Source of the DNA: an uncultured Gammaproteobacteria bacterium
Lineage (GTDB): Bacteria; Patescibacteriota; Microgenomatia; JALYQM01
Assembly (NCBI GenBank): GCA_964403585.1
Contig: CAYOFQ010000001.1
Span: 712,630 to 776,629, forward strand
DNA: 64,000 nt
Reading direction: 5' to 3'
Shown: piece after piece, positions 3,016 through 63,144 of the stretch
Position numbering within the stretch: the first letter of the stretch is position 1
Layout: the number at the start of each line of letters is the position of its first letter
The notes under the pieces: model-generated
What the model was told of the DNA's origin: nothing
Seen by the model: only the letters and a program-made list of their open reading frames with translations
Databases searched by the model: none
Made by a program: the position numbers and the translations under genes

Positions 3016-3648
3016 ATGGATACCTTTACCATTTTTCTGTTCGCAGTTGTACTCTTTGTCGCATTTATCTATTTTCTCCGCCAGTTGCATAGTCAGCCAT
3101 CCCTCGCCGATCATAAAATTTCCAAGCTGTATGTCGATGCCCACATTATCGAACTGGAGGAGAATGACCTGATCATTGACGGGCAAACAAATAACGACAT
3201 TCATCTGGGACATTTTGAAGAGCTTATCGAAGTACTTAACCGGTGCGCGATGTATAAAGAAATTTTCAATAATTACAAAATCTATGTAGCGGTGAACCAT
3301 ATTATTGGTCTGCCGAAACTCCAAAACTATATCCATGGTGAGAATTTCATGACCGTGGAAGAGACGCAGTTTCGTGAAGATCTGAGATATGGTGGTTGTT
3401 ACTTTCAAAACAAAGACGGTGGTGCTATGATTCATGCTATAGGAGAGCCGGATGCTATCCTAAATCTCTGTTCTCAGATTCATGATACCGAAGAGATTCT
3501 TCGGGTATCTCAAAAATGGATAAAACAGGGATACCTTGTTTCCGCTGTAGCAACAGCAGATGTTTATGGCGATAAAAAGAATGTTTTAGTACGCGGCGTA
3601 AAAGAAAAAATGGTCTTTCTAGGACTACTCGCTATTAAAAATTCATGA
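3016..3648 (+). CDS. Hypothetical protein with an N-terminal TM helix and a C-terminal segment resembling a P-type ATPase nucleotide-binding/hinge region. Possible gene remnant.
   Basis: The C-terminus GEPDAILNLCSQI...GYLVSAVATA...MVFLGLLAIKN parallels the KGAPE..C...GxRVLAxA...FxGLxxxxDP block of P-type ATPases. That block includes the bona fide ATPase at 30929..33469. The ORF stops before the DPPR/TGD motifs. Confidence 0.35.
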   Translation: MDTFTIFLFAVVLFVAFIYFLRQLHSQPSLADHKISKLYVDAHIIELEENDLIIDGQTNNDIHLGHFEELIEVLNRCAMYKEIFNNYKIYVAVNHIIGLPKLQNYIHGENFMTVEETQFREDLRYGGCYFQNKDGGAMIHAIGEPDAILNLCSQIHDTEEILRVSQKWIKQGYLVSAVATADVYGDKKNVLVRGVKEKMVFLGLLAIKNS

Positions 3649-3992: not shown

Positions 3993-4102
3993 TTTTTTAA
4001 ATCAACACTGCCCAACCCCCAATAATTATTGATTATATTTTATTACAAGAATTCGCGTTCGTGTGGTGTGCACGCTGCGATAGATATTAGTAATTTAAAA
4101 CC

Positions 4103-4197
4103 GCTGTAGCGATTCTTTTCCGTGCGACTTAGGAGAGCATGAAATGCTCGACGCGGAGCGAAGCGGGGAGCAAAGGAAAAAATCGCAAAGAGGTTTT
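4103..4197. repeat. Conserved ~90-nt structured element, copy A (second copy at 52990..53075)
   Basis: The core is gcgat.cttttc.gtgcgact.a + variable hairpin + gc.gAGCGAAGCGGGGAGC.AAAG.AAAA.ATCGCAAA.AGGTTT. The outer stem gcgatNcttttc/gaaaaNatcgc and an internal hairpin are retained with different sequence in the two copies. Confidence 0.5.
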
Positions 4198-4229
4198 AAA
4201 AAGATTAAGAGAATTTAGGAGAAAGTATA

Positions 4230-4963
4230 TGAATACCAAAGCCATTACAACAGAAAAAGAAAACTTAAAAGAAGAGATACAGTCATTCATTCTTGGGGGT
4301 GAACTTAGTCGAAGATTATCATCAACACAGAAAGATCTCTGTATCAAAACATCACTCGCCTTTAACTTAAACCCGTTAAAGAGAGAAGTTCACTTTGTCC
4401 CGTTTAACAACGATATTAAAATTGTTGTCGGGTACGAAGTATATTTAAAGCGGGCAGAGAAGTCCGGCAAACTCAACGGCTGGAGAGTAGATATTGATGG
4501 AGCAGGCTCCAATATGAAAGCAGTTGTCACCATTAACCGTAAAGACTGGGAAAAACCATTCGTGCACGAAGTATTTTTAGTCGAAGCACGCCAGTCAACA
4601 CCACTCTGGCTAAAGATGCCACGCTTCATGCTTAAAAAAGTTGCGATTGCCCAGGCATTTCGCTTAGCCTTTCCGGAAGAACTCGGCGGTCTCCCGTATA
4701 TGCCGGAGGAAGTCGGGTTGGAAGGAGTGACACAACCTGAAGAGAAAAAGAATGTCGCGGTGAATACACCTCCCAAGGTACACCACACTATTCTCACTTC
4801 TGCTCCACGCGCTATTAAATTAGAAAAAATTCAGTGCGAAAAGTGTCAGAGGGAAATTACACCGGGCATCAAAGCCTTTAGTGAAAAGAATTTTGGACGA
4901 GTTTTGTGCATGACGTGTCAGAAAACAGCTAAATCTGCGACTCCTGTACAAGCGACAGCCTAA
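4230..4963 (+). CDS. recT: RecT-family single-strand annealing protein with C-terminal Cys4 zinc-ribbon
   Basis: WLKMPRFMLKKVAIAQAFRLAFPEELGG matches the E. coli RecT HPERMLRHKAMIQCARLAFG block. The C-terminus is CEKCQ...CMTCQ. The start was moved to the M at 4230, which has the aggagaaagtatATG RBS, because 4139..4229 is the repeated element. Confidence 0.7.
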
Positions 4964-16697: not shown

Positions 16698-16961
16698 TTC
16701 CTCTGAATCTTTGGAGGTATCTGCTTCATTGACGACTGGCTTGGGAGTTGCTGCTACGCCGGAGTCTTTTTTATACATTTCACCTACCAGCCAGAGCACG
16801 GCTTCTTTTTTATATCGTCGATCACCGCGTTGGTTGATTCGAATAGCTTGGAGCTTTCCGCGTTTTCCCCACCGCTTAAGCGTAATTTTCGATACGCGTA
16901 AAAAGTCTGCTACTTCCTGGATTGTCATTAATTCCGGTAAATCGTCGCCAATTGAGGCCAT
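16695..16961 (-). CDS. HTH (MerR/excisionase-type) DNA-binding protein
   Basis: MTIQEVADFLRVSKITLKRWGKRGKL helix-turn-helix. The start is set at the M with RBS taaggagaattcacATG. Confidence 0.55.
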   Translation of the reverse strand: MASIGDDLPELMTIQEVADFLRVSKITLKRWGKRGKLQAIRINQRGDRRYKKEAVLWLVGEMYKKDSGVAATPKPVVNEADTSKDSEE

Positions 16962-17061
16962 GTGAATTCTCCTTAATGTAATATAACTCATGAATTCATA
17001 ACTAATATATCAAAGGTAATCAGAAGGTATCAAAAATTAAGGCACACAACAAGGGGGAATT

Positions 17062-17097
17062 TATACGAAAAGAGCCGCATCTTTCGACACGGCTCTC
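17062..17097 (-). terminator. Rho-independent terminator downstream of rplL
   Basis: On the minus strand, hairpin agagccg..cggctct followed by TTTTCG. Confidence 0.45.
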
Positions 17098-17145
17098 TAA
17101 TATTTCGGAAGACGCTTAAGCGGTTCCTCAATGATTCATTACAAA

Positions 17146-17541
17146 CTACTTAAGTTCAACTGTAGCACCAGCTTCAGTGAGTTTCTTCTTTGCTTCTTCA
17201 GCTTTCTCTTTGTTAACACCTTCGAGAACTGCTTTTGGAGCTGATTCAACAACAGCTTTAGCTTCAGCGAGTCCGAGTGAAGGAACGAGTTCGCGAACAG
17301 CTTTAATCACAGCGATTTTGTTAGCACCTGCGCCGGTGAGAACAACATTGAATTCTGTCTTCTCTTCAGCCGGAGCTGCGTCACCAGCTGCTGCCGGTGC
17401 TGCGCCTGCCATCATCATAGGAGCTGATGCTGAAACACCAAACTTCTCTTCGAGAGCATGTACTAAATCAGCGAGTTCAAGAACGGAAAGTTCTTCAACA
17501 GCTGCGATAACCTTTTCAACTTTTGCAGATACGTCTGCCAT
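17146..17541 (-). CDS. rplL: 50S ribosomal protein L7/L12
   Basis: Classic L7/L12 N-terminal dimerisation helix, Ala/Pro hinge and C-terminal domain [13 protein letters not shown]...LGLAEAK. Confidence 0.92.
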
Positions 17542-17660
17542 ATGAATTCTCCTTAATGTAATTTAAAATTTCGAATTCACTCCGCGCATGCAATGCGTGG
17601 AGAAAACTCCTTATATTAATTAATCAAATCTCCGACGCGATTTTGAAATCGCGGAGGAAG

Positions 17661-29759: not shown

Positions 29760-30305
29760 ATGAAACAATTTCTCGGTCTCATTTTATTTTTGGTATGGAG
29801 CATCATCGCGCCAGCTACTAATTCATACGCTCATACGGTGCACACCAGCGGCTCTATTAGCGCTATATTACACATTGCCGCTGACGATGATCCGATTGTA
29901 GGGGAACCAACCCGCCTGATTTATACAATTAAGGATGCAAATAGAAAATTCTCAGCTGAAAAATGCGAGTGCAAAGTTGAAATCAGCACCAACGGCACGG
30001 TTATTGAAAATAAGTTGTTATCCCGCGACAATAATTCCGAACAATCACTAGATTTCACTTTTAAACAAAAAGGAATCTATACAATTACGCTAAGCGGGAG
30101 TGCCCGGGATAATTCATTTGAACAATTCCAAATCAAAAATGAAATCCGGGTCTCGCGCGAAAATGCCAATTCCTCAATTATGAACCTTATCATTGCCTAT
30201 CTACCGATATCTGCGCCAATCGCCGCCGCGGTAGCTTATACCGTAGTATTATTATTGGGTGGAAAAAAGGAATCCAAATTAAACACAGAAGGAGTTACAC
30301 CGTGA
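29760..30305 (+). CDS. secreted/membrane-anchored hypothetical protein. Mature N-terminus is predicted to start with His.
   Basis: Signal peptide ...SYA|HTVHT. C-terminal TM helix. Confidence 0.45.
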   Translation: MKQFLGLILFLVWSIIAPATNSYAHTVHTSGSISAILHIAADDDPIVGEPTRLIYTIKDANRKFSAEKCECKVEISTNGTVIENKLLSRDNNSEQSLDFTFKQKGIYTITLSGSARDNSFEQFQIKNEIRVSRENANSSIMNLIIAYLPISAPIAAAVAYTVVLLLGGKKESKLNTEGVTP

Positions 30306-30928
30306 ACCATAAAATAACCAGAAGTATTATTGCTGCAATTATCCTGATCGCAGGCTCGGTATCACCGTCATATGCACACGTTACCGTTCGGCCAAACGAA
30401 GTTGGAGTTGGTCAATTTATTACCTTTACCATGGGAGTTCCGCCCGAAAAAAAGGTTCCCACAACTGAAATACGTCTGGTAATTCCCGACGGGCTTGAGT
30501 CGATTCGGCCGTTAGTTAAACCGGGGTGGAAAATAGAAATGAAAAAAGAGAGCGACAAAGAAGACGCCCGGATAACCGAAATCCTTTGGACCGGTGGTGC
30601 GATTCCTTCCGATCAGAAAGACGAATTCTCGTTCAGTGCTAAAGCTCCGGCCAAAGCAACAACCCTGCAATGGAAGGCCTACCAGACCTATTCCGACGGT
30701 ACCATCGTTGCCTGGGATCAGCCTCCGGCGGAGTCGGAGACAGAAGCAAAAGATGAAAACAAAGGCCCGTATTCGCAGACTAAAATTATTGACGATCTGG
30801 TAACTGCTGATACTGCTAAGCCGCAAACAGCCGGGCAATCAGCCGACAAATCATTCACTCAATACATGTCTCTTGCCGCCCTGGCACTGTCGATCATCTC
30901 GTTGGCACTGGCTATCCGCAAGAAATAA
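30302..30928 (+). CDS. YcnI-like (DUF1775) copper-binding cell-surface protein
   Basis: Signal peptide ...SYA|HVTVRP with the mature N-terminal His typical of YcnI. C-terminal TM anchor. Confidence 0.55.
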   Translation: MNHKITRSIIAAIILIAGSVSPSYAHVTVRPNEVGVGQFITFTMGVPPEKKVPTTEIRLVIPDGLESIRPLVKPGWKIEMKKESDKEDARITEILWTGGAIPSDQKDEFSFSAKAPAKATTLQWKAYQTYSDGTIVAWDQPPAESETEAKDENKGPYSQTKIIDDLVTADTAKPQTAGQSADKSFTQYMSLAALALSIISLALAIRKK

Positions 30929-33510: not shown

Positions 33511-34524
33511 TTAGTGAATGATAACCGAATTAGAATTACTTGAATTAGTAATAGTCGTTGTCGCCGAACCGGTTGCCGTATTCACATCCCCGCCGGAATT
33601 ATTGCCCGTATTCACAGTATTATTCACCGTTGTTGTCTGTGTTGAAGTATTGCTTTGATTAACCGTAGTTGAGCTGTTGTTGTTTATGATTATGACGTTA
33701 GTAGAACCACTACCGTTTCCGGTATTACCGATTCCTGACGGGCTAGGGTGGAAAGTCGACGATGCTGTTGGGGAGGGAGTGGTGGTAGGATCGGAGGTTG
33801 AAGATGGAGATGGTGAGGCTGTTGCCGAGGAAGTCGGACTTGCTGAGGCAGAAGCTGATGGGCTGGGAGTAAATGTTGCAGTTGAAATTTGAAGATTAAA
33901 AAGCGGCTTGGTTAAATGAAAGTAAGCTAATACTGAATCCGGTGAAATGGATAACCACAATAAAACTCCAACTACCACTCCGATAATTGGTTTATTTTTG
34001 GAAAAATTAAAATTAAGTTTAAAATCAAGTTTTTTCATCTCTCGGATAATTATCCAGCTTTCATGAATAATTATAAGTATCGAAGGCACAAGAATAAAGA
34101 AGAGCAGACCTAAAGGATTTTTAGTTGATTCCTGAAGAAATCCAACATAGGGAAGCGTTAGTACAACTTTCCCGACAATATCGTTTTTGCTTACAGTCTT
34201 TGGATCTATTTCTTTGTTCGCGTCTCCTTTAGTTAGGTAGTAATTATGAGCAAAAATTACTCGGTGGGTTACTAAATTGGATCCGAGACGATAGGTCACG
34301 ATGTCATTTATATAATAATCAGCTTGCGAGAGCACAACCACGGCACTGCCAACACCAATAGCGGGCGTCATTGAACCGGAAACAACGGAGAGTAATTTAA
34401 TTTGAGAAGTGTGAGAGAACTTGGAATACAGCGCCACGACTCCAATCGTAGCAACCACTACTAAAAACACGACACTCATCACTTCATAAGAAGTAAATAG
34501 TAATTTTCTCCAGTTTAGTTTCAT
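33511..34524 (-). CDS. sipW: SipW-type (S26B) signal peptidase I with long C-terminal TM plus Ser/Pro/Thr/Asn-rich extension
   Basis: The SGSMTP catalytic-serine box and the H of VTHRV are characteristic of SipW/archaeal-type SPases. The 337-aa length reflects a low-complexity tail of about 150 aa. Confidence 0.65.
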   Translation of the reverse strand: MKLNWRKLLFTSYEVMSVVFLVVVATIGVVALYSKFSHTSQIKLLSVVSGSMTPAIGVGSAVVVLSQADYYINDIVTYRLGSNLVTHRVIFAHNYYLTKGDANKEIDPKTVSKNDIVGKVVLTLPYVGFLQESTKNPLGLLFFILVPSILIIIHESWIIIREMKKLDFKLNFNFSKNKPIIGVVVGVLLWLSISPDSVLAYFHLTKPLFNLQISTATFTPSPSASASASPTSSATASPSPSSTSDPTTTPSPTASSTFHPSPSGIGNTGNGSGSTNVIIINNNSSTTVNQSNTSTQTTTVNNTVNTGNNSGGDVNTATGSATTTITNSSNSNSVIIH

Positions 34525-42116: not shown

Positions 42117-44399
42117 GTGATAGCTTTTAAACATACCAAAGCACTCCATATACTCCTTGTCACGGTTATCGTAACCAGCCTGCTGGCAGTTATGAGCAAT
42201 TATGGACGTGAATTGAGTTATGGACAAACTATCAATCCTGCCGGTTGTTACACCTATGTTGTTACGGATAAAAATAACTCGAGTGTCAAGTTTATGGCTA
42301 TAAACTTAAATACAAGAGTACTCACTCCTTTGTCAGCAACCTACTCCGGAGATGATATTTTCGAATCCCTTGCTATAGATCCAACCAACAAAGTTCTCTA
42401 TACCGTTTCGTTAAGTGGGTATTCATCTCCCGGTCGACTGTATAAAGTCGATGGTACTACCGGAGCCGTTACATTAGTTGGTAACACCGGCTACACCAGC
42501 GTTTCTGCGCTGTCATTTAAGCCGGATGGCACCCTATGGGGCTGGGATGAAACGAAAGGTTTAATTAGTATTAACAAAACCACTGGTGCTGCAACATTGT
42601 CCTATTCAACTGTCAGGGATTTCGGTGGTATGGCGTGGAACACTGCCGGCACAGTGCTATACTTATCTCTCGAAAATAAGGAATTGTGGACTTATACTCC
42701 TTCCACAAACACACTTTCAAGAATTGCTACCAATCTTCCCTATGAAGGCGACTCATTAGCCATGAGACCCGACGGAGTATTGCTTGGCGGAAACGGTAAC
42801 GGTGGTTCAGGTCAGGTAACCATTTACTCCTACAATACTTCAACTAAGACCTCCAGCAATGTGATCTCGATTGCAAGCGACTACGATGATGTTGAGGATA
42901 TTGCCTGGCCACAGAGCTGCGGAAATCCATATAGCCCAACACCCAGCCCGACACCGAGCCGCACACCAACACCGACACCTACTCCGTCACGAACCCCTAC
43001 ACCTACTCCGACACCCACACCAACGCCTACGCCATCACCGACCCCAACTCCTACGCCTGCCTGTGCTCCGAATTGCTCAACAAAAGAAATCGGTACTATT
43101 AATCCGCTATTCAACACCTTCTCCGCCGACGGTGACAACACCATTGAAATGAATGATCCGGACACCTGGGTTCGCTTAACAATTCAGGGCCCGAGCCCGC
43201 TTGCCTCAAGCAATGTCATTGTCAGTGAACGAATTGATACCACCAACTTTACAATTAACTCGCCCTACCACACCTCAGCGTCAGACTACAGTATTAAAGT
43301 TACCAAGAAGAGCGGTGCCACAGAAAACGATATAACCTGTGCCGATAGTGGCGACGCGGATGCAATACCTGATTGTGTGACCAGGCTCCCAGCCAGCGGA
43401 TCGATTACCGGACTCAATGTTACCTTAACGAATGTTTTAGCTGCCGATGTACATTACATCTACTTTAAAGTGACACCGGTTCGATCGTTAAGTTCTGCGG
43501 AAATTGACAGCAGTACCAGCCAAATTGAATATGTTGGCTTTGGCGCAACCAATCCGAACCGGCTTGTGTCTTTGGATATGCACCAGGTAAACATTAATTC
43601 GGGACCCTCATTCTTCCAGGTATATAATGGCGATGTCTACACCGCATCAACCGATACATCGGTCGCGGTAGAATCGAAACTGCCCCTCAATACTGCTTTT
43701 GACCCAACCAATAAATCCATAATTATCGCCAAAGGCGGCTCCAACTGGGGAAATGGGCGAGTTAATACCAAAGGGTGGGATATCAGCAATTACAATAGAG
43801 TAGACAATAGCGATTTTGATTATGATGTTTATGCAGCACGCTATGCCGAACAAATCAAAGCGGTAGATATAACCAACCTTGGATACGCAGCCCTTACGAC
43901 TTCAGGTTATTATATTGATACGAACGCTACGGCTGCAGGGTATTCATTAACATTAGGGAATACCTGGAGTGGGATAAATATCCAGGGGAAGCAACTTGTA
44001 GTATTTGTACCCGGAGATCTGTTTATCAATAAATCATTTACAATTCAAAAAGACGGATTAAGTTCGATTATCTTTATCGTCAAAGGTAATATCGGAATCG
44101 ATCCGGATGTGACCAAAGTAGAGGGTATGTATATTGCCGAACAGGGGAAAATTGATACATCGTGTCGAGGAACATTTACGCTATCTCTCTGCGCTCCGGA
44201 TAGTACAAATTCATTATCCAACAAACAATTAGCACTCGAAGGGTTTTTCTATTCTGACGACGGTGGATTCAACCTGGATCGTAAGCCAACCTCAACGACC
44301 ACTGCCGGAGAAATATTCACCTTACGCCCGGATCTCTTAATTAATGCCATGACTTCGGTTGGACTGAAGCAATATGCCTGGACAGAAAATGTGCAGTAA
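42117..44399 (+). CDS. large secreted cell-surface protein with Pro-Thr/Pro-Ser repeat linker
   Basis: N-terminal TM/signal anchor. [17 protein letters not shown]... low-complexity linker near residues 270-320. Confidence 0.55.
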
Positions 44400-48634: not shown

Positions 48635-48709
48635 TGGAGCGGAGGAAGAGATTCGAACTCTCGACGTTCACCTTGGAAGGGTGACATTCTACCACTGAAT
48701 TACCTCCGC
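48635..48709 (-). tRNA. tRNA-Gly (anticodon TCC), CCA encoded
   Basis: gcggagg acceptor. D-stem attc/gaat. Anticodon stem tcacc/ggtga with loop cTTCCaa. T-loop TTCGAAT. Discriminator U followed by CCA. Confidence 0.85.
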
Positions 48710-48749
48710 ACGAGATCAAGAAGTATCATACCAAATTCCCCATTCTATA

Positions 48750-49016
48750 TCAATGAGACTGCTCCAGACGCCTAAGTACCGACGCCGAGGGGCGATTAAG
48801 CTGATACGCGACGCGGAGGGCCTCCCGAAAATGATCAGCCGCCCGGCCGATCGCCTCAGGAACGCCAATATTTTCGTGGGCATTTTTCAACCCCACTTCA
48901 GCTAAGTGCAATTCGTAGTCTGCGCCTCTTTCCCGACGGGAAATCCAACGTTCCATACCAGAATATTCTAGCACTGCCCGAGTAATCCGCAACTTTACAT
49001 GAGTGCTATAATACAT
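48750..49016 (-). CDS. small GC-rich hypothetical ORF (88 aa) next to tRNA-Gly
   Basis: ORF only. Confidence 0.3.
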   Translation of the reverse strand: MYYSTHVKLRITRAVLEYSGMERWISRRERGADYELHLAEVGLKNAHENIGVPEAIGRAADHFREALRVAYQLNRPSASVLRRLEQSH

Positions 49017-49024
49017 ACAAAATT

Positions 49025-50251
49025 TTACTTAAGAGTTATATCCTGGGCACTCAATTTATCCTGTTTGACGACTTCTCCGGGAGAAGTGTACGAATGATAG
49101 GCGAGTTTCCGCCCCGGATAGATACTCGTATGGACGCCGGTGCGGACATGATCTCCAACAATCGCACCCAAATGATACAAGCCTGTATCGATTAAATTTT
49201 CTTTAACGTTGACTTTTATTTCACCGCGATCATGTCGTCGATCTGCAGTAACTGTGCCGCCACCGAAAATAATATTATTTCCCAGCACGCTGAATCCGAC
49301 AAAGGATAGGTGTTCGATATTGACCTTATTGCCAATCGAAGAATGCTCAATTTCCACCGAACTGCCGATTTTGCAGTAGTCGCCAATATCAACATTGCCG
49401 CGCAAATAGGTATGCGGACCAATAACACAGTTCTCACCAATAATGACATTACCGTCAATATATGTCCCGGACTTTACGACAGTACCTTTGCCGATAATGA
49501 CATTGCCTTTAATGACAACGTTGTCCTCAATCTCACCCTGAATATCCCGTTTGATTTCCGGCATCAGCCGTTCATTGGCTGTTAATATAGACCAGGGATA
49601 ACCGATAGTTAGCCAGTAGCCATTAACAGTCACGATCTCCATCGGATATTCCTGACAATAAGCAGTTAATACATCCGTCAATTCATATTCACCGCGTTTG
49701 GAAAGGGGAATAGTTTTAGTGAACTTGAAAACATTTTTATCGAGATTAAACACACCGATGTTCGCACTGTTGCCTACATATTCATTCGGCTTTTCCACAA
49801 TGTTGTCCAGGGTTCCGTCAGCTTTCGTACGTAAAATACCGAAAATTTGCCAGTTGTCCACGGGTTTGCCGGCTATACTGCGATCATACTTCACCGATTC
49901 CTCATAAAAAACCGGATCGTAGATATCATCACCGTAAATCATCAGGAATTTATCATTGTGAATCGCATCCTCAGTTACTTTAAGCGCGTGCCCGGTACCG
50001 AGCGGTTCATGCTGGCGCACATAGTAGACCGGCTTGCCTTCAAAAGAATCTCCAATAGCCGATTCTATCTGCTCGTGCATATACTCGACCACCAGAATAT
50101 ATTCATTAACAAACGGTGCCAGATTGCGCATGTTATGGTATAAAACACTCTTCCCGGCAACTTTTAGTAATTGTTTTGGAACGGTTTTGGTAAGCGGCTC
50201 AAGACGGGTACCTTTTCCCGCGGCGAGGATAATGGCTGATCGGTCTGACAT
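49025..50251 (-). CDS. bifunctional-type sugar-1-phosphate nucleotidyltransferase with left-handed beta-helix acyltransferase domain (GlmU-like)
   Basis: N-terminus AIILAAGKGTRLEPLT. C-terminal hexapeptide repeats (VIIGKGTVV..., NVIIGENCVIG...). Confidence 0.7.
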   Translation of the reverse strand: MSDRSAIILAAGKGTRLEPLTKTVPKQLLKVAGKSVLYHNMRNLAPFVNEYILVVEYMHEQIESAIGDSFEGKPVYYVRQHEPLGTGHALKVTEDAIHNDKFLMIYGDDIYDPVFYEESVKYDRSIAGKPVDNWQIFGILRTKADGTLDNIVEKPNEYVGNSANIGVFNLDKNVFKFTKTIPLSKRGEYELTDVLTAYCQEYPMEIVTVNGYWLTIGYPWSILTANERLMPEIKRDIQGEIEDNVVIKGNVIIGKGTVVKSGTYIDGNVIIGENCVIGPHTYLRGNVDIGDYCKIGSSVEIEHSSIGNKVNIEHLSFVGFSVLGNNIIFGGGTVTADRRHDRGEIKVNVKENLIDTGLYHLGAIVGDHVRTGVHTSIYPGRKLAYHSYTSPGEVVKQDKLSAQDITLK

Positions 50252-50356
50252 ACGATTTCTCCTTAATGGGAAAACTCCCTATAGAAGTAAATCATACACC
50301 AAAAGCGCCCATCTGAAAAAGATGAGCGCTTAAGAAGGTATATTTACTACCTATAA

Positions 50357-52321
50357 TTATCTAACGTAAAAACTGACCCGATCAACATTTACTTCAAACG
50401 TTGAGCCGGCGGTTTTGTAGTATTGAATTCCGGTATACTTTACTGCGCTTGAAGAAGGTGTATAGACAAACCAGTCGATGTGCGTACCGGCGGCAGCTGC
50501 ACCTAACCATTGACCTGAAATCCAGTTACCGTTGGCATCATATTCGTCCAGGTAATACCCGAACTCTCCGGTACCGGTACCAACTATGACACAGGTTCCG
50601 AAATCATAGGTCTTAGTACTGTCAACCGCGATCAACTTTGTATTTACAAGATGCACGTTGACTGTGTTATTTGCCTTCATAATAATACTTTCCGCTCCGG
50701 AGCAACCTTTCGAATTCGTGTCATAGATTACTGAAGCATCATCGGCTTTCCAGTACAGTGCAAATCCGTTTTCCGCTGCACCCATATTAGAGTTGCGTAC
50801 TAAATTCGTACCAACAGGGCTTGGTGTCGGCACTACGGTCGCTGTGGCGGTAGGAGAAGGAGAAACAGTCACTGTTGGGCTCGGTGAAACGCTCGGTCTC
50901 GGAGTCGCACTGGCACTCGCTGTCGGTGTTACCGATGGCTTTGGTGTGGCACTGGCCGAAGCGGTTGGAGTTGCCGAGGCTGTAGCAGTCGGTGACGCGG
51001 ATTCTGTCGGACTTGGGCTCACTGAAGGAGCCGGTGTTGCACTTGGCGGAGGGGTAACCGTACTGTCAGTGAATACTTTGTACATCTCGACATTATCAAC
51101 ATAGATACGTCCGGATGATCCGGCGGTCATATAAACTTCCAGCATCATGGTTGAAACATTCCATGAGGTCGGCTGGTAGACAAAACCGAATTCATTCACG
51201 TCGTTGCTCTTATTGGTATCGTTATTAAACATACCACGCAACCATTTACCTGAAATCCAGTTACCCTGAGCATCATACTCATCAACATAGAAACCGTATT
51301 CTCCGGTCTTCCATCCCACCTGGTTAACAAAGGCTTTAAATGCGTACGTATCGTTGGCCGACACAGCAATCTTCTTACTGAACAGGTGTACGGCGGTGGA
51401 AGTACCGTTTAAGGCAACCGAACTTTTTGAATTAGGCATAGCACCGTTGGTATTGGTATCGATTTTTACCTGGGTACTATTTTCAGTAGTCCAGCCGGCG
51501 GTCATTCCACTTTCAAAAGAAGAATTATCAAATATATTAGTCTGGTTAACTTTAATCATGTCTTTAACCTGAGACACTTTGATCCCGCTTGATTTAACGT
51601 AATCGGCGATAGACTTAAGGGTACTTTCAGTGACGTCGTATTGATCTGACGCTTTACTTGAAACTACTTCATGGAAAACCAGCACCAGCCAGGTATTAGT
51701 TGCTTTGGCGTGATCAACCCAACCCTTAACTTGAGTTACCGTAGTGGATTTCTCAACAGATTGAACATTGATCATATATCTGTTGTACGGGAAGATATTA
51801 TCGCTTTCACGGTCATGGAAAGGACGATGTGCCTCGAACTGCTTGGCAATTGCCGAAACAACCCGATTATCATAGTCTCCATACGGTGTAGCAAACGAAA
51901 CAGGATTGATACCATGAGAAACTAAATCCTTTTTCGATTGTTCCACTTCATATTTAATTTGAGAGTCTGAGAGCGTACTCATCAACGGATGCGTAACGGA
52001 ATGGCTTCCGATCTCCCAACCGTATTTATTTTGCAAATCCTGAGTTTGAGTCCAGGACATGTAGCCGGATTTACCCATATACCCGGTATTGGCATACATA
52101 ACGCCTTTGATACCGCGGTCTTTAAGTATCGGCATGGCTCTGGTATAGGTGCTGGATAAAGCATCATCAAATGTAAATGATACTGCAGCCTGCGGAGCAT
52201 AAACCTGCGCGGAATACACTTCACTGGCCATAATGCCGGCAAACTGAGCTAAAGCCATCGCAGTACCAACGGCAACTGCGGCGATACGTTTAACTGATTC
52301 TTTGGTAAATGTATTTTTCAT
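50357..52321 (-). CDS. polysaccharide deacetylase (CE4/NodB) with C-terminal carbohydrate-binding-module-like domains and Pro/Thr linker
   Basis: Signal peptide. NodB motifs TFDDALSS and GSHSVTHP. PT-rich linker. Two beta-rich repeats that share a YVDEYDAQGNWISG / YLDEYDANGNWISG block. Confidence 0.75.
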   Translation of the reverse strand: MKNTFTKESVKRIAAVAVGTAMALAQFAGIMASEVYSAQVYAPQAAVSFTFDDALSSTYTRAMPILKDRGIKGVMYANTGYMGKSGYMSWTQTQDLQNKYGWEIGSHSVTHPLMSTLSDSQIKYEVEQSKKDLVSHGINPVSFATPYGDYDNRVVSAIAKQFEAHRPFHDRESDNIFPYNRYMINVQSVEKSTTVTQVKGWVDHAKATNTWLVLVFHEVVSSKASDQYDVTESTLKSIADYVKSSGIKVSQVKDMIKVNQTNIFDNSSFESGMTAGWTTENSTQVKIDTNTNGAMPNSKSSVALNGTSTAVHLFSKKIAVSANDTYAFKAFVNQVGWKTGEYGFYVDEYDAQGNWISGKWLRGMFNNDTNKSNDVNEFGFVYQPTSWNVSTMMLEVYMTAGSSGRIYVDNVEMYKVFTDSTVTPPPSATPAPSVSPSPTESASPTATASATPTASASATPKPSVTPTASASATPRPSVSPSPTVTVSPSPTATATVVPTPSPVGTNLVRNSNMGAAENGFALYWKADDASVIYDTNSKGCSGAESIIMKANNTVNVHLVNTKLIAVDSTKTYDFGTCVIVGTGTGEFGYYLDEYDANGNWISGQWLGAAAAGTHIDWFVYTPSSSAVKYTGIQYYKTAGSTFEVNVDRVSFYVR

Positions 52322-52331
52322 ATGATTTTAT

Positions 52332-52964
52332 TTACGCCTTAGCATTCAGCTGCGTAATCTCCTTAAGCGTAGCTTTAATAATCAGGCGTTTTTCATCAAA
52401 GAAACCATTACAGGTAATAAGCGTTAACTCACGACCTTCGCCTGGCTTCATAACCTCTACATTTTTCGGGTTAGTGGTACTAATTTCACTTACTTCATAG
52501 GTAAACTGGTAGGTTGAGGTTTGTACATATACCAGATCTCCCTTTTTAAGCTGAGACATTGGCCGGAAAGCATCCGGCTTATTATGACCAAAAAGTACAC
52601 TGTTTCCGACATCACCATTAAACGGAGATGTTTCTTCAGCAAAGTTTGCAACACCTTCATCAACCGCCCAGGTACCGTTCTGCATCGGTTGTGACACAAT
52701 CGGTAATCCAAGCGTTAGGGAAGGAATAACTAACCGCTTCGGTTTGCCCGGCTCATCAATCTTTTGAAACGGGACGGATTTAATCGTCTCATTCGACTGT
52801 TTCTCCACAACAACATCTACAGTTTTTGGCTGAGACGCCTGCATGAACGGAGCCGCAAATGACCGTACCTGCCAAAAAACAAGTACCGTTGCGAAAACCG
52901 TAACGAGTATGGCCGGTTTCGAGGCCTTAACAAAAGATAATGAGCGGGCAATAGTGTTTTTCAT
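52332..52964 (-). CDS. sortase family transpeptidase
   Basis: N-terminal TM anchor. LFGHN and TLITC catalytic Cys motif. Confidence 0.8.
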   Translation of the reverse strand: MKNTIARSLSFVKASKPAILVTVFATVLVFWQVRSFAAPFMQASQPKTVDVVVEKQSNETIKSVPFQKIDEPGKPKRLVIPSLTLGLPIVSQPMQNGTWAVDEGVANFAEETSPFNGDVGNSVLFGHNKPDAFRPMSQLKKGDLVYVQTSTYQFTYEVSEISTTNPKNVEVMKPGEGRELTLITCNGFFDEKRLIIKATLKEITQLNAKA

Positions 52965-52989
52965 ATAACCTTTTTATATTTAAACCGAT

Positions 52990-53075
52990 GCTGCGATGCT
53001 TTTCTGTGCGACTAAGCCAGGTAATCCTGGCGCAGAGCGAAGCGGGGAGCTAAAGAAAAGATCGCAAATAGGTTT
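52990..53075. repeat. Conserved ~90-nt structured element, copy B (see 4103..4197)
   Basis: Same core as copy A. The variable hairpin is ccagg-taat-cctgg instead of gagcat-gaa-atgctc. Confidence 0.5.
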
Positions 53076-53086
53076 AAATTCATATA

Positions 53087-53278
53087 TTAGTTATTTTTCT
53101 TTGCATTTTTGTAATAACGAACAACTACACTTACTGAGTACATAAGACTCAATACTGATACGGCTGCAAAAGCCATAGCAAGATTGTAGTTAACGTTTCT
53201 TGACCAAAGGTACATAGCACCTGAAGTCATAGGTAACGCTGTCGCTGCAGCAAGTGTGACACCACCTGTGTATGACAT
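53087..53278 (-). CDS. small two-TM membrane protein (IcaD/PgaD-like position)
   Basis: The start is set at the M with RBS aaaaggag. It lies immediately downstream of the GT2 gene. Confidence 0.4.
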   Translation of the reverse strand: MSYTGGVTLAAATALPMTSGAMYLWSRNVNYNLAMAFAAVSVLSLMYSVSVVVRYYKNAKKNN

Positions 53279-53289
53279 AAAAACTCCTT

Positions 53290-54588
53290 TTACCTGGTTC
53301 CCCATCCCATGGAGTAACCAGCCTTTAAAAATAATGAACTTATCTGTTTATCGATTTTTTCGGCCCAGGCGCCAGTCGTGAGAAGCTTGCGCACGAGCTT
53401 GGTATAAACAATAAACAAATACGAACCCAAGAGACCAACAGTTAAAATGTTGGCATAGATAAATTCAGGAATAATCGTAATTCTCAAAATCCAATCCCAG
53501 ATATCCGCATCCTCGTAACTCTTTAGAGTTAAAACGCTAAATGAAAATCCAACAATAAATTGTGTAATCGCAGTCATTGCAATCACCCAGGTAATGATCG
53601 GGTAACTATTCTGCGCCGGAATCATGAACGCCAGAATAACGCTGACAAACGTCGCAATAAACATAAAGTGTCCAATAACATCCTGGAATATTGCGGGTAA
53701 GTACCGTTCTTTAGCTAAAATTTCTAACCCGCCCACTGACCAGCGGATACGTTGCTTCCAGAGTGCGGTGAAATTTTCCGGAACATCGGTCCAGGCTGCT
53801 GCATGAGTCGCAAATTTAACATCGTATCCGGCTTTTTTAATCCGGGCGGTCATGTCATAGTCTTCGATTAAGTGTCCGGTAGCAAAGGATCCGACCTTCA
53901 TAATAGCTTCATAGCGGAAGGCGGAAAGCATACCGTGCATAACCAGCGGACCATTAACAAAACCTGATTCGGCCTTTCGAATGACGTTGTATCCATGATA
54001 TTCCAATCCCTGGAGTCGGGTTAATAAGTTCTTATTCTTATTCCAGGCTCGGGCCTGAGAACAAACAGCCCCAAGGCGTTCATCACGCATCATTTCCGAA
54101 GCCATGTGACCGATAGTATATTCATTAATTTGAACATCATCATCCAATGTAAAAATAACGTCAGCAACCATGTTGTTCTCTTTAATGTGTGTCAACGCCA
54201 AGTTGATCGCACCGGCTTTAAGATAGTTAGTCGGTGTTTTAAGGACGGTTACCCGGTCAGAGATTCCTTTTATTGAATCAAAAACGGCATCGTATTCTGC
54301 TGGAGACGAATCGTTAACCACTATTACTTGTGCTTTATGGTTATAGGTAACGATGTCTGAAACAAGTTGGGTAAGGGCTTTACCACCTTTATATGAAGGG
54401 ATAATCGCGATCGAACTGACATTCGGTACAATATAAAACTCCTCGTACGTTTTAGGGGCTACGAAGTAGGAAAGGTTTTTGGCAACTTTCTTAGTTGAGC
54501 TCAAAGCACCTTTTTCTTCAGGTACCGCGCTGTAGCTTTGGACCTGAACTTTGATTGCATTTGACGGTTTTTGATAGAAATTTTTCAT
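53290..54588 (-). CDS. family 2 processive glycosyltransferase (IcaA/PgaC/cellulose-synthase-like)
   Basis: DxD motifs plus the QRIRW signature of processive GT2 synthases. C-terminal TM helices. Confidence 0.8.
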   Translation of the reverse strand: MKNFYQKPSNAIKVQVQSYSAVPEEKGALSSTKKVAKNLSYFVAPKTYEEFYIVPNVSSIAIIPSYKGGKALTQLVSDIVTYNHKAQVIVVNDSSPAEYDAVFDSIKGISDRVTVLKTPTNYLKAGAINLALTHIKENNMVADVIFTLDDDVQINEYTIGHMASEMMRDERLGAVCSQARAWNKNKNLLTRLQGLEYHGYNVIRKAESGFVNGPLVMHGMLSAFRYEAIMKVGSFATGHLIEDYDMTARIKKAGYDVKFATHAAAWTDVPENFTALWKQRIRWSVGGLEILAKERYLPAIFQDVIGHFMFIATFVSVILAFMIPAQNSYPIITWVIAMTAITQFIVGFSFSVLTLKSYEDADIWDWILRITIIPEFIYANILTVGLLGSYLFIVYTKLVRKLLTTGAWAEKIDKQISSLFLKAGYSMGWGTR

Positions 54589-54791
54589 AAATACCTATAC
54601 TGAACCTAACTAGACTATAGTAAAATGAGCTAGAATAAGCTCAAACTAACTATAATAGGCTGGATTATAGCAGAAAATAGGCTAAAAGTCAAATGCTATA
54701 GGATAGAACACCTCAAACTACAATGACCTATATCACATAAATAAATGCTCAGAGCATTACCTTGTGCTATTAACCGTGATAGAATAAAAGG

Positions 54792-62643: not shown

Positions 62644-63144
62644 TTATTGCTTTGGCACCGCTACTTTTGGATTTTTGCGTAGCATTGCTACACCAAAACC
62701 TGCACAGCTAATGATTACCAAGAATATGATAATACTGAGAACGATACTTGGTCCACTGGGAGGTTGGGAATCGGTAGAGGCCTGGACCTCACCGGTCGGC
62801 TGCGGAGTTGCGGTCGGCATGAGTGTAGGAGTGGGTGTCGGTGAAGCAGTAACTGTCGGACTCGGTGATGCTGTTTTTACGACCGGTTTTTTTGTTGCCG
62901 CCGCGGTTGGCTTCGCAGTAGCAGTTGTCGAAGGAGAAGGCGACACCGATGGACTTGGTGAAACCGACGCACTGGCACTTGGCGAAGGTGTTGTTGTAAC
63001 AGTCGGACTTGGTGACGGTGTTGCCGTTACGTCCGGCGAAATATCAATAGCGGGCATGCCGCTTGGCGTTTGAGCATTCACCGGAACTACTACAACCAGC
63101 AACAAAAGTAAGGCGCAAAGCGCAATGGCAGTACTTTTTATCAT
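62644..63144 (-). CDS. Ser/Pro/Thr-rich surface protein with N-terminal signal and C-terminal TM plus basic tail
   Basis: Low-complexity TPSPSPT repeats. The start is set at MIKSTAIALCALLL. Confidence 0.45.
   Translation of the reverse strand: MIKSTAIALCALLLLLVVVVPVNAQTPSGMPAIDISPDVTATPSPSPTVTTTPSPSASASVSPSPSVSPSPSTTATAKPTAAATKKPVVKTASPSPTVTASPTPTPTLMPTATPQPTGEVQASTDSQPPSGPSIVLSIIIFLVIISCAGFGVAMLRKNPKVAVPKQ

Follow-up and report, generated by a model that had tools for sequence, protein, structure and literature searches.

A sortase-bearing exopolysaccharide-type gene cassette of Patescibacteria-like bacteria and its candidate LPxT mini-protein substrate

What does a sortase do inside a cluster of genes for making an exopolysaccharide? 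The question matters in the ultra-small CPR/Patescibacteria, which are attached to other cells and whose surface building is little understood. In the window analysed here (the whole stretch of DNA, 64,000 nucleotides long) such a cluster was found, and we read it as a conserved set of four genes for synthase-dependent exopolysaccharide production in CPR/Patescibacteria-like bacteria, in which a small protein is the dedicated substrate of the embedded sortase, a reading to which we give slightly better than even chances. A cassette that combines a PNAG-like synthase, a dedicated sortase and an LPxT mini-protein would represent a concrete and testable mechanism of surface-polymer attachment and would widen sortase biology past protein and pilus anchoring. 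Neither the cassette nor a sortase within a PNAG-type operon was found described in the open-access literature.

The cluster is tight and reads on the minus strand in the order GT2, 63-aa gene, sortase and CE4, with glmU past the hairpin that follows CE4 (Table 1). Every gene listed by the first-pass annotation was recovered in place, all on the minus strand. The promoter-like site lies about 75 nt 5' of the GT2 start codon, and the core operon probably ends at the terminator-like hairpin positioned 3' of the CE4 stop, co-transcription being judged here from gene spacing and consensus scans only. The same annotation had carried the operon on through GlmU to the small GC-rich ORF, and at this end it had to be shortened. 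The glmU gene is split from CE4 by the strong hairpin and a promoter-like site, is adjacent to the cassette in the closest clade only, and is probably transcribed separately or by read-through. The closest relatives lack the 88-aa ORF, which is outside the system; the tRNA-Gly(tcc) 3' of glmU is kept in relatives.

Table 1. Features of the locus, with positions numbered from the first nucleotide of the window.
Feature	Position	Strand	Details
Structured element, copy 1	4094..4200	-	between two plus-strand genes, adjoining a RecT-family gene
tRNA-Gly(tcc)	48635..48709	-	own promoter-like site at 48725-48753
88-aa ORF in GC-rich stretch	48750..49016	-	no family
Archaeal-type bifunctional GlmU	49025..50251	-	TIGR03992, 424.1 bits (cutoff 292.1)
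Terminator-like hairpin	50303..50331	-	12-bp stem, -25.4 kcal/mol, z -6.7, then UUUUGG
Secreted CE4 polysaccharide deacetylase, 654 aa	50357..52321	-	signal peptide; CE4 domain aa ~43-260
C-terminal parts of the CE4 protein			repeat 1 aa ~264-416; PT-rich linker aa ~420-502; repeat 2 aa ~505-654
Sortase, 210 aa	52332..52964	-	His127 (LFGHN), Cys185 (TLITC), Arg193 (KRLIIK)
Structured element, copy 2	52978..53079	-	long hairpin in the 122-nt gap (52965-53086) between small gene and sortase gene
63-aa membrane protein, GT2 partner	53087..53278	-	no Pfam or NCBIfam family
Basic tail RYYKNAKKNN of the small protein	53090-53119	-	after the hydrophobic segment
Hydrophobic segment of the small protein, aa 33-53	53120-53182	-	12-aa spacer after LPMTSG
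LPMTSG of the small protein, aa 15-20	53219..53236	-	instance of the invariant LPxT[S/A/T][A/G]
Processive family-2 glycosyltransferase (GT2), 432 aa	53290..54588	-	assigned from motifs and family scores
Promoter-like site TTGACT-17-TATAAT	54664..54692	-	upstream TG; 11/12 matches; consensus scan only

The gene order in relatives, which had been proposed as a check, was found to be the same (GT2, a 62-64-aa ORF, sortase, CE4-CBM) in seven further lineages (L001/L002, L003, L070, L004, L068, L069 and L071). Identity to the window across these cassettes ranges from 36 to 85% for the GT2 and from 29 to 78% for the sortase, and the small gene and the sortase gene of the relatives overlap or lie 4-19 nt apart. 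The sortase, which keeps its slot in relatives, is a real, if atypical, part of the system, as had been claimed. The homologues that carry names belong to Kaiserbacteria, Parcubacteria and 'Patescibacteria group'. The accessory proteins of other clusters (TIM-barrel GH-like and sorted Gly-rich proteins) are not encoded in the window.

To characterize the synthase we compared its motifs and family scores. The GT2 carries D93, DDD149-151, ED242-243 and QRIRW279-283, and the catalytic motifs D, DxD, (T)ED and Q(R/Q)xRW are invariant across an alignment of 21 sequences; three to four membrane segments are found at the C-terminus and none at the N-terminus. Among NCBIfam families the best match is PgaC_IcaA (TIGR03937), with 132.2 bits, far below the equivalog cutoff of 422.3, against 60 bits for NodC, which ties with the XrtG-associated GT2 family TIGR03111 in second place, and 26 bits for CelA. 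All 21 family members match PgaC_IcaA, which yields the lowest best E-value. A profile comparison by hhalign aligned the window GT2 with E. coli PgaC at 99.4% probability, the two sequences being 25% identical. In one relative a GT2-NTP-transferase domain fusion was observed.

The deacetylase matches PF01522 with 74.6 bits (cutoff 23.1) and contains TFDD50-53, HSVTH107-111 and LVFHE214-218. Its C-terminal repeats, about 150 aa each, are separated by a Pro/Thr/Ser/Ala linker; repeat 1 aligns with 126 of the 136 profile positions of CBM_4_9 (PF02018) at E 1.3e-4, its 22.8 bits falling short of the cutoff of 25.9, and repeat 2 gave no match to that model. The IcaB (TIGR03933) and PgaB (TIGR03938) models, the latter also requiring a C-terminal GH153, gave 33 bits (cutoff 248) and 29 bits (cutoff 322), respectively, the similarity to E. 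coli PgaB is confined to the TFDD region, and the best NCBIfam family for the CE4 domain is HfsH, with 86 bits against a cutoff of 400. The CE4 proteins examined carry signal peptides. With GT2 and CE4 far below the family cutoffs and no PgaD similarity in the small protein, the proposed membership in the ica/pga family was not sustained. Of the complete make, deacetylate and anchor logic that had been read into the locus, the make-and-deacetylate part is borne out by a processive GT2, a small membrane partner and a secreted CE4 with CBM-like repeats. The product of the cassette would be a GlcNAc-type surface polysaccharide, made and then deacetylated, and PNAG is a plausible candidate for this polymer.

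The small protein starts at an ATG at 53278, preceded by an AAGGAG box and located 11 nt past the GT2 stop; the ORF listing also holds a 72-aa form from an in-frame ATG further upstream. In each of the 12 clusters examined it is encoded immediately downstream of the GT2, and it is thus, like PgaD and IcaD, a conserved small membrane protein that follows its synthase gene. BLASTP against E. coli PgaD revealed no similarity (E = 19), and profile searches of Pfam and NCBIfam assigned no family. The first-pass annotation had described a two-TM protein in the IcaD/PgaD position, of which the position stands, whereas only one of the two membrane segments passes the Kyte-Doolittle threshold; the N-terminal one, with a mean of about 1.0, lies under it. 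AlphaFold predicted a two-helix hairpin at low confidence (pLDDT 67), in which a helix of residues 5-25 pairs with the C-terminal helix. Homology is lacking even between PgaD and IcaD, each the small membrane partner of its own GT (PMC7112194), and the 63-aa protein, judged by its sequence and position, is a putative third, unrelated small partner of a GlcNAc synthase beside them.

The most constrained feature of this protein is its LPxT motif. The family comprises 124 distinct sequences, 34 of them with LPxT, and in an alignment of 29 sequences (27-90% identity) the sole invariant columns are L15, P16, T18 and N58. Among the 34 sequences, L, P and T are invariant, the Thr is followed by S, A or T and in one case by G, and the motif lies 14-18 residues from the N-terminus in all but three (31/34). 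L and R[YF] stand at a constant distance of 37-39 residues, and the last 12 residues hold 2-5 Lys/Arg, so that a hydrophobic segment and a positive tail follow the motif at fixed spacing as in a sorting signal. No signal peptide was detected in the small protein, and only 14-18 residues precede the motif.

The sortase scored 87.3 bits in the PF04203/TIGR01076 test (cutoff 26.6) and has the catalytic His, Cys and Arg as well as an N-terminal membrane anchor (TM at aa ~11-31). Its scores against sortase classes A-F (NCBIfam NF0337xx) are all about 59 or lower, with cutoffs of 140-166; classes C and E are the best, with 59.4 and 58.9 bits, each against a cutoff of 160. All 13 homologues returned either belong to cassettes of this kind or come from contigs whose length does not show the context, and none was seen outside a cassette down to 29% identity. 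The catalytic residues are retained in the active members. Where sortases are encoded near sortase-less clusters, their identity is only 27% and they lie beside large substrates of their own. By these comparisons the cassette enzymes appear to be a sortase subfamily dedicated to the GT2/small protein/CE4 cassette. We also observed another window protein that ends in KPQTAG, a TM segment and IRKK. The CE4-CBM protein was considered as a sortase substrate and rejected, with a C-terminal sorting signal in none of nine homologues.

The LPxT motif is present in all seven active-sortase clusters with known context and missing from each of the four clusters (L040-L043) that have no sortase embedded in them. 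This co-occurrence, together with the conservation of LPxT in a sorting-signal layout, indicates that the small protein is probably the substrate of the embedded sortase. The small protein of L071 carries a fused sortase-like domain that has lost His and Cys, and its motif has decayed to LPAS; by this fusion the basic tail also comes to lie on the cytoplasmic face of the membrane anchor of the sortase. Members of the family also exist that have neither LPxT nor a sortase, so that serving as a sortase substrate is not the family's primary role, and since the sortase-bearing clusters possibly descend from a single ancestor, the co-occurrence of sortase and LPxT may count as few independent events.

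Three other explanations of the cassette were weighed against this reading. That the locus is an ordinary ica/pga-type PNAG operon, with an IcaD/PgaD analogue and a housekeeping sortase that anchors unrelated surface proteins as a bystander, is in our judgement improbable: PgaC_IcaA does top the families of the GT2, PgaD and IcaD lack homology even to each other, sortases are common in CPR genomes (PMC6744442) and the KPQTAG protein of the window counts in its favour, but every equivalog cutoff is missed widely, the same sortase slot is occupied in seven lineages by proteins not seen elsewhere, and it is the divergent sortases near the sortase-less clusters that have large substrates of their own. 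We see a better, though still minor, chance that LPxT is an uncleaved structural or docking feature of a two-helix subunit, the sortase, whether active or not, serving as a scaffold of the synthase complex or acting on another acceptor-donor pair. The AlphaFold hairpin has LPxT within its first helix, and if that helix spans the membrane the motif would lie within the bilayer, which is not the classical working place of a sortase; the protein has no signal peptide, position 5 departs from LPXTG, and the fused, catalytically dead sortase domain of L071 implies that physical association matters. However, a sortase reads precisely L, P and T, which are also the only invariant residues in the N-terminal part, active sortases keep His, Cys and Arg while the motif decays where catalytic residues are lost, and the N-terminal segment is under the TM threshold. 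We would hold about as tentatively that the polymer is beta-1,4-linked (chitin- or chitosan-like, by a NodC/NodB logic) and not beta-1,6 PNAG. The NodC model matches all 21 GT2 family members, the Pfam chitin-synthase model matches the window GT2, and the solved structures nearest to it by sequence are chitin synthases and one hyaluronan synthase. Among the extra glycosidase genes of relatives (GH18 in L004, GH10 in L068) the GH18 points to beta-1,4 chemistry, and modules of the CBM_4_9 type typically bind beta-1,4 and beta-1,3 glycans. Against this, the PgaC_IcaA score is more than double that of NodC (132 vs 60 bits), and the structural ranking is uninformative on linkage, the PDB holding no PgaC for comparison.

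The gap between the small gene and the sortase gene raises a separate question. The structured element there had been described as the second copy of a 90-nt sequence; the second copy is real, the core of copy 1 being 88% identical to it, and the length is about 102 nt. In copy 2 the 20-mer of the 5' internal loop, GCUCCCCGCUUCGCUCUGCG, is conserved, the inner hairpin is variable, and the motif AGUCGCAC lies on the 3' side. The two copies are the only ones in the window, and both fold more stably than shuffled sequences (z -5.8 and -4.7). The stems covary and the loop 20-mer is conserved across phyla, with GC-rich relatives in other phyla. L001/2 and L003 lack the element in this gap, the L003 genome having a copy at another site, and its place in the operon design that had been proposed could not be upheld: it is a lineage-specific occupant, apparently the insertion of a dispersed structured element. 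A two-block pattern scan of genomes returned one true copy (L006), and the window has no region orthologous to its site; matches in L005, L007 and L008 were dismissed as chance in high-GC genomes. Copies other than copy 2 lie in unrelated contexts, next to recT on the opposite strand, upstream of an aldolase gene, and in the rne-rplU and fabH-fabK spacers. Several further candidates were set aside. The L001/2 spacer as a decayed element scored within the shuffle range in local alignment, the exception being 14 nt that match the copy 1 inner hairpin; coding potential of the element was rejected, as a plus-strand ORF from 4139 crosses copy 1 only and is unconserved in other copies; and scans of IMG/VR gave nothing or chance matches only. 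No description of the 20-mer was found in the open-access literature.

It is improbable that the element is a cis-regulatory RNA of the operon, for instance a riboswitch or attenuator for sortase and CE4. It does lie in sense orientation in an intercistronic gap, with a very stable fold and covarying stems, and L001/2 have a hairpin and U-run at the same site, but the closest relatives lack the element in this gap, the other copies occur in unrelated contexts, and neither the two copies nor 12 related loci matched any covariance model of Rfam 15, whether at gathering thresholds or with E allowed up to 10. A REP/ERIC/MITE-like dispersed repeat, acting at the level of DNA or single-stranded DNA and spreading by insertion with an incidental effect on the operon, is a serious contender, to which we assign somewhat less than an even chance. 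Presence or absence at the copy 2 site is polymorphic, the copies are few, dispersed and of mixed orientation (5 sense, 2 antisense to their neighbours) with inverted-repeat ends, several derive from one metagenome (L014, L028, L029), and the complementary strand contains GCGAAGC, a DNA motif that forms a stable mini-hairpin. A direct repeat of 8 nt, TATATGAA, is present at 53079-53086 and 52960-52967; of the MITE characters, inverted ends and polymorphism are present, and the direct repeat is found at copy 2 only, where it does not abut the 3' end. On the other side, a selected RNA would more typically show what is seen here, a 20-nt loop kept across phyla and stems that covary freely; the GCUCCCC strand has 7 G-U cells against 2 A-C cells, no direct repeat flanks the other two copies, no transposase is nearby, and phage, plasmid and viral collections gave no similarity. 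Whatever its nature, the element is a candidate new cross-phylum RNA or DNA motif, absent from Rfam. Its likeliest effect here would be to uncouple the small gene from the sortase gene, and hence to reduce expression of the sortase compared with that of GT2 and the small protein.

Returning to the sortase-substrate reading, the following sequence of events may be proposed. From its motifs and family scores, the PgaC/IcaA-like GT2 would polymerise a UDP-GlcNAc-derived chain and export it through its own C-terminal membrane domain. The neighbouring GlmU, though not a conserved member of the module, could supply UDP-GlcNAc. The secreted CE4, held on the polymer by its CBM-like repeats, would strip part of the N-acetyl groups. 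The 63-aa protein, adjacent to the synthase gene in every cluster, would act as the small membrane partner of the synthase and, in the sortase-bearing branch, also as the dedicated substrate of the embedded sortase, which would cut after the invariant Thr of LPxT[S/A/T][A/G] and transfer a 17-18-residue N-terminal peptide to an amine acceptor, speculatively a peptidoglycan precursor or a glucosamine residue bared by CE4. These data suggest a previously undescribed link between protein sorting and polysaccharide synthesis. A bolder version, in which a sortase recruited to polysaccharide biogenesis cuts a synthase subunit at LPxT and joins its N-terminal peptide to peptidoglycan or to CE4-unmasked glucosamine amines, the peptide perhaps holding or priming the nascent chain, we regard as unlikely but worth stating. 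If true, the exopolysaccharide would be tethered covalently to the cell surface through a sortase reaction, with a substrate that has essentially no protein passenger; this would be a new mode of glycan anchoring.

The cassette was compared with several known systems. Like PgaABCD of E. coli and IcaADBC of Staphylococcus, it follows a synthase-dependent logic, with a processive GT2 (D, DxD, ED, QxxRW), an adjacent small integral-membrane partner and a CE4 de-N-acetylase outside the cell. Unlike them, its GT2 is only 25% identical to PgaC (132 vs 422 bits) and lacks N-terminal TM helices, its small protein is unrelated to PgaD and bears LPxT, a sortase is an integral member, its CE4 has CBM_4_9-like repeats in place of the PgaB GH153, and neither a PgaA porin nor IcaC is present. 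HfsH, the holdfast deacetylase that is the best match of the CE4 domain (86 bits), and NodB-type CE4 enzymes share the TFDD, HxxxH and LxH motifs; HfsH is cytoplasmic and acts on a lipid-linked oligosaccharide, whereas the cassette enzyme, far under the cutoff of 400, has a signal peptide and CBM-like repeats. The element resembles REP/BIME, ERIC and Correia-type repeats in being an imperfect palindrome of about 100 nt, intergenic or intercistronic and variable between close relatives, and such repeats can change mRNA stability within operons; it differs from them in its very low copy number, its loop conserved across phyla with covarying stems, and the lack of any transposase or RAYT gene seen. 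As in SrtB-IsdC and in the pairs of pilus class C sortases and pilins, a specialised sortase stands beside what is, in the cassette, its probable own substrate, in which a variant of the motif precedes a hydrophobic segment and a basic tail, but the putative cassette substrate has no signal peptide and almost no passenger and doubles as a synthase partner, and the sortase fits no NCBIfam class A-F. A parallel in logic is offered by the exosortase G (XrtG) and PEP-CTERM/exosortase systems (Haft; TIGR03111), in which a sorting transpeptidase, a cognate signal protein and a PgaC-like GT2 likewise occur together, and which link protein sorting to exopolysaccharide production (PMC1569441; PMC12854382), a link known from genomics for twenty years with no mechanism. 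The cassette, in contrast, has a classical sortase (PF04203, a Cys transpeptidase with an extracellular domain) and not an intramembrane exosortase, and its signal is LPxT, not PEP-CTERM or Firmicu-CTERM, with a passenger of only 14-18 residues.

The first-pass annotation had listed a set of minus-strand genes between 48.6 and 54.7 kb, and every one of them is present. The core is a four-gene cassette comprising a GT2 synthase, a 63-aa small protein, a sortase and a CE4 deacetylase with CBM-like repeats (CE4-CBM). Among the 12 gene neighbourhoods inspected, the order GT2 / 62–64-aa ORF / sortase / CE4 was found again in L001/L002, L003, L070, L004, L068, L069 and L071, so that this order recurs in seven further lineages. 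GT2 identity to the window is 85% in L001/L002, 81% in L003, 59% in L070 and 47% in L004, and falls to 41% in L068, 40% in L069 and 36% in L071, where the GT2 is partial. Patescibacteria are rich in GT2 homologues, and the named matches include Kaiserbacteria and Parcubacteria.

Features of the cassette, its surroundings and related loci (window positions unless a locus is named; L-numbers are loci or contigs of relatives or other genomes)
Feature	Position	Strand	Description
GT2 synthase	53290-54588	-	432 aa; Pfam Glyco_trans_2_3 and related models; QRIRW at aa 279-283, DDD and ED motifs
Small ORF	start ATG 53278	-	63 aa; AAGGAG box; 11 nt past GT2 stop
Gap, small ORF to sortase		-	122 nt
Sortase	52332-52964	-	210 aa; PF04203; LFGHN, TLITC, KRLIIK
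CE4 protein	50357-52321	-	654 aa; start 10 nt past sortase stop
GlmU, archaeal-type	49025-50251	-	TIGR03992, 424 bits (cutoff 292)
88-aa ORF	48750-49016	-	GC-rich stretch; no family matched
tRNA-Gly	48635-48709	-	tRNA gene
Element copy 2	52978-53079	-	fold z -5.8
Element copy 1	4094-4200	-	fold z -4.7
RecT-family recombinase gene	4229-4963	+	PF03837, 82 bits; adjoins element copy 1
210-aa ORF	3016-3648		neighbour of RecT-family gene; no family matched
Hairpin between CE4 and glmU	50303-50331	-	12 bp; -25.4 kcal/mol, z -6.7; then UUUUGG
Promoter-like site	50291-50319	-	overlaps the hairpin past CE4
Hairpin and U-run	54626-54643	-	within ~75-nt leader between promoter-like site and GT2 start
RBS/start-codon repeat (families D4, D7)	16945-17566; 50235-50268		~34 nt in common, CATxxGAATTCTCCTTAATG on the plus strand
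Pro/Thr-linker-coding repeats (families D1, D3, I1)	50840-50947; 62821-63015; 33811-33846; 42998-43033
DUF1775 (YcnI-like) protein	30302-30928	+	C-terminus AKPQTAG, 11-aa spacer, TM, IRKK
Fusion protein	L071 379-1260		in-frame, small protein and sortase-like domain
TIM-barrel protein	L004 6894-7946; L042 10257-11618; L043 6473-7609		conserved, secreted; weak glycoside-hydrolase signals; accompanies GT2 cluster
Neighbour proteins	L040 11032-12819; L041 7615-8421		end in Gly-rich linker, [AT]PN[AT]G, TM, basic tail
Spacer	L001/L002 9503-9584		GC-rich hairpin and U-run, where the window holds the element
Same-architecture element	L010/L023		between RNase E-like gene and rplU
Same-architecture element	L029		between fabH and fabK, antisense
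Same-architecture element	L012/L037
Same-architecture element	L014		between nusB and xseA

The sortase subfamily appears dedicated to the cassette, since every relative that could be placed occupies the same slot, down to 37% identity (29% in L071); L068, L069 and L070 were found through their sortases and not through the GT2. In the more distant GT2 clusters L040-L043 the GT2, small ORF and CE4-CBM genes are kept, except that L041 is without CE4, and the sortase is absent from the slot in all four. In two of these four, a remote sortase homologue is encoded a few genes off, next to a large surface protein or to a protein ending in APNAG, a TM segment and a basic tail. The [AT]PN[AT]G motif ending neighbour proteins of L040 and L041 may represent a different sortase motif of those lineages. 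Extra genes accompany other clusters: the TIM-barrel protein, whose GH2, GH5 and DUF4434 matches are all below cutoff, GH18 with a second GT2 (L004), or GH10 (L068). None of these accessory genes lies within the window. In one lineage an NTP-transferase domain is fused to the GT2, which would fit a link to sugar-nucleotide supply.

The small protein matches no Pfam or NCBIfam family and has no similarity to PgaD; it nevertheless belongs to a real family. A word-indexed search returned 53 members and exhaustive HMMER searching over 1.84 billion representatives returned 75, giving 124 distinct sequences of two types when pooled. The Kaiserbacteria type (M-x-N-[FL]-[NH]-G-G ... P-L-G-M-Y-A-G-Y-L-L) is without LPxT, and the LPxT type (34 distinct sequences, including that of the window) follows M-x-[DN]-Y-G-x-G-x-x-L-[GA]-A-A-T-x-L-P-x-T-[S/A/T]-[A/G]. 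Across a 29-sequence alignment (27-90% identity) no column is invariant except L15, P16, T18 and N58. Of the 34 sequences, 31 carry the motif 14-18 residues from the N-terminus, the distance from its L to the R[YF] past the hydrophobic segment is constant at 37-39 residues, and the final 12 residues hold 2-5 Lys/Arg. Motif, hydrophobic segment and basic tail would thus follow the tripartite plan of a cell-wall sorting signal; the window peptide around the candidate site is AAATALPMTSGAMY. The DUF1775 protein has a second sorting-signal-like C-terminus, of the same PxT[A/S]G flavour.

LPxT is present in all seven clusters of known context with a predicted active sortase (LPMTSG in the window, L001/2 and L003; LPATSG in L070; LPVTSG in L004; LPATSA in L068 and L069) and absent in all four without an embedded sortase, a match that is complete across the readable neighbourhoods. 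In the natural L071 fusion the sortase-like domain has other residues in place of the catalytic His and Cys (IFADD, LTIITA), and LPxT has decayed to LPAS. The fusion implies that the basic tail and linker are cytoplasmic, so that the stretch immediately preceding the hydrophobic helix would face outward, as the sortase domain does. The CE4-CBM proteins were ruled out as substrates, since they carry signal peptides but lack a sorting signal. Several points speak against the small protein as substrate: it is without a signal peptide, only its C-terminal segment exceeds the Kyte-Doolittle threshold, and the residue past Thr is not Gly. An AlphaFold model (29 sequences, pLDDT 67) makes residues 5-25 a helix that packs against the one at the C-terminus; LPxT would be buried if the helix of residues 5-25 spans the membrane. 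The sortase-bearing clusters are possibly one clade, in which case few independent events may lie behind the association. We give the small protein about an even chance of being the substrate of the embedded sortase, and think it unlikely that the transfer anchors the polymer.

The best curated NCBIfam family of the GT2 is PgaC_IcaA at 132 bits, far under the equivalog cutoff of 422 bits, followed by NodC and the XrtG-associated GT2 (60 bits) and CelA (26 bits); this model matches 21 of 21 diverse members of the GT2 family. Comparison with E. coli PgaC gave an hhalign probability of 99.4% at 24% identity and, by pairwise BLASTP, 25% identity (E 2e-23). Its nearest relatives in PDB are chitin and hyaluronan synthases (E ~1e-3). 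The hydropathy scan detected no N-terminal and three to four C-terminal TM segments. The CE4 domain matches HfsH best (86 bits), with PdaB, IcaB and PgaB next in order; no score comes near the respective cutoff, and the domain's resemblance to E. coli PgaB is confined to the TFDD region. The protein carries a signal peptide, the catalytic motifs TFDD, HSVTH and LVFHE, and two ~150-aa repeats (repeat family D2; DNA 78% identical over 73 nt) with a Pro/Thr/Ser/Ala linker between them, repeat 1 matching CBM_4_9 just under the Pfam cutoff. Since the GT2 is closest to PgaC_IcaA and the CE4 domain has these family matches, our best inference for the product is a GlcNAc-based, partly de-N-acetylated polymer. 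A beta-1,4-linked product instead of a beta-1,6-linked one is a live alternative. The make-and-deacetylate logic of the first-pass annotation holds as far as best family and the presence of a CE4 go, with all equivalog cutoffs missed. Pro/Thr-linker repeats recur in several window genes, so several of its secreted proteins have PT-rich linkers in common.

Consensus scans and spacing point to GT2 / small / sortase / CE4 as the most likely core transcription unit and to glmU as a neighbour, since the GT2 is preceded by a near-consensus promoter-like site, and a hairpin and a promoter-like site lie between CE4 and glmU. The overlap of these two suggests that glmU forms its own unit. Among the neighbourhoods inspected glmU is adjacent only in L001-L003, and its proposed operon membership is not supported. 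The RBS/start-codon repeat precedes three minus-strand genes, glmU among them, and the leader hairpin before the GT2 may be an attenuator. In L001-L003 the flanking glmU and tRNA-Gly are both conserved, but the 88-aa ORF has no counterpart there at either the protein or the DNA level; the region resembles a ~270-nt insertion specific to the lineage.

The gap between the small and sortase genes holds a structured element that the annotation had taken into the operon design, a view the relatives argue against. The same gap is a stop/start overlap in L003 (TAATG) and an overlap in L069, measures 4-19 nt in L004, L068 and L070, and in L001/2 is an unrelated spacer of 82 nt that carries a hairpin and U-run. 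The element is not part of the cassette but a separate structured motif that happens to sit there, at an intercistronic site that seems to attract hairpins. At this locus it would uncouple the small gene from the sortase gene, which would favour small protein over sortase, as for a consumed substrate versus a catalytic enzyme.

The two copies share a core identity of 88%, and a covariance-model search of the window found these two only. A third lies in L006, another contig of L003's MAG, upstream of a LacD-like aldolase. In the three-sequence alignment 30 of 30 proposed pairs form in all, with both sides changed in 8, and no shuffled or slid control approaches this pairing. The conserved parts are unpaired (internal loop, 5' side GCUCCCCGCUUCGCUCNGCG, 3' side AGUCGCAC), and the inner hairpin changes completely from copy to copy. 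When metagenomes were scanned for the 20-mer, most matches were chance ones in GC-rich DNA, but a set of the same architecture also came up: pyrimidine-rich/purine-rich stem, 20-mer, variable hairpin, AG(U/C)(C/G)GCA. Against the full model, L010 and L029 reach 32 bits (E ~1e-6 to 1e-5). Adding them, in an alignment fitted to the model, gives pairing in 94.5% of cells and double changes at 23 of 30 pairs. On the GCUCCCC strand G-U cells are in excess over A-C cells (7 to 2), which weakly supports this strand as the structured one. The element could be either a selected RNA, acting as a small RNA or as a hairpin for mRNA stability or processing, or a repeat of the REP/MITE kind. Orientation to neighbouring genes is sense in five cases and antisense in two; copy 2 together with 11 further nt is flanked by a direct repeat of 8 nt, TATATGAA, and the other copies have none similar. 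There was no match in Rfam, no counterpart in phage, plasmid or IMG/VR collections, and the motif was not found in any paper. L014, L028 and L029 are GC-rich contigs of one metagenome (Ga0129317), each with a diverged 20-mer element; they share further intergenic repeats, seen as recurring pseudo-peptides such as PVFSSSQEEK, and their genomes seem rich in dispersed repeats.

The observation of this gene cluster with its embedded sortase was confirmed, and its interpretation in part supported. Our literature search found no description of this cassette, and CPR bacteria are enriched in sortases (PMC6744442). The cassette resembles Pga and Ica systems in its synthase, small partner and CE4, but fails every equivalog test and is without PgaA, IcaC and the PgaB hydrolase domain. 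As PgaD and IcaD are unrelated to one another (PMC7112194), a third unrelated small partner comes as no surprise. For the sortase, the nearest conceptual precedent is the link of exosortase/PEP-CTERM to EPS loci (PMC1569441), above all the XrtG system, which combines a sorting enzyme, a protein with a C-terminal signal and PgaC-like GT2s (PMC12854382), although enzyme class, signal and minimal passenger all differ in the cassette. We read the system as a putative new form of the synthase-dependent machinery that makes GlcNAc polymers, equipped with a dedicated pair of sortase and LPxT mini-protein.
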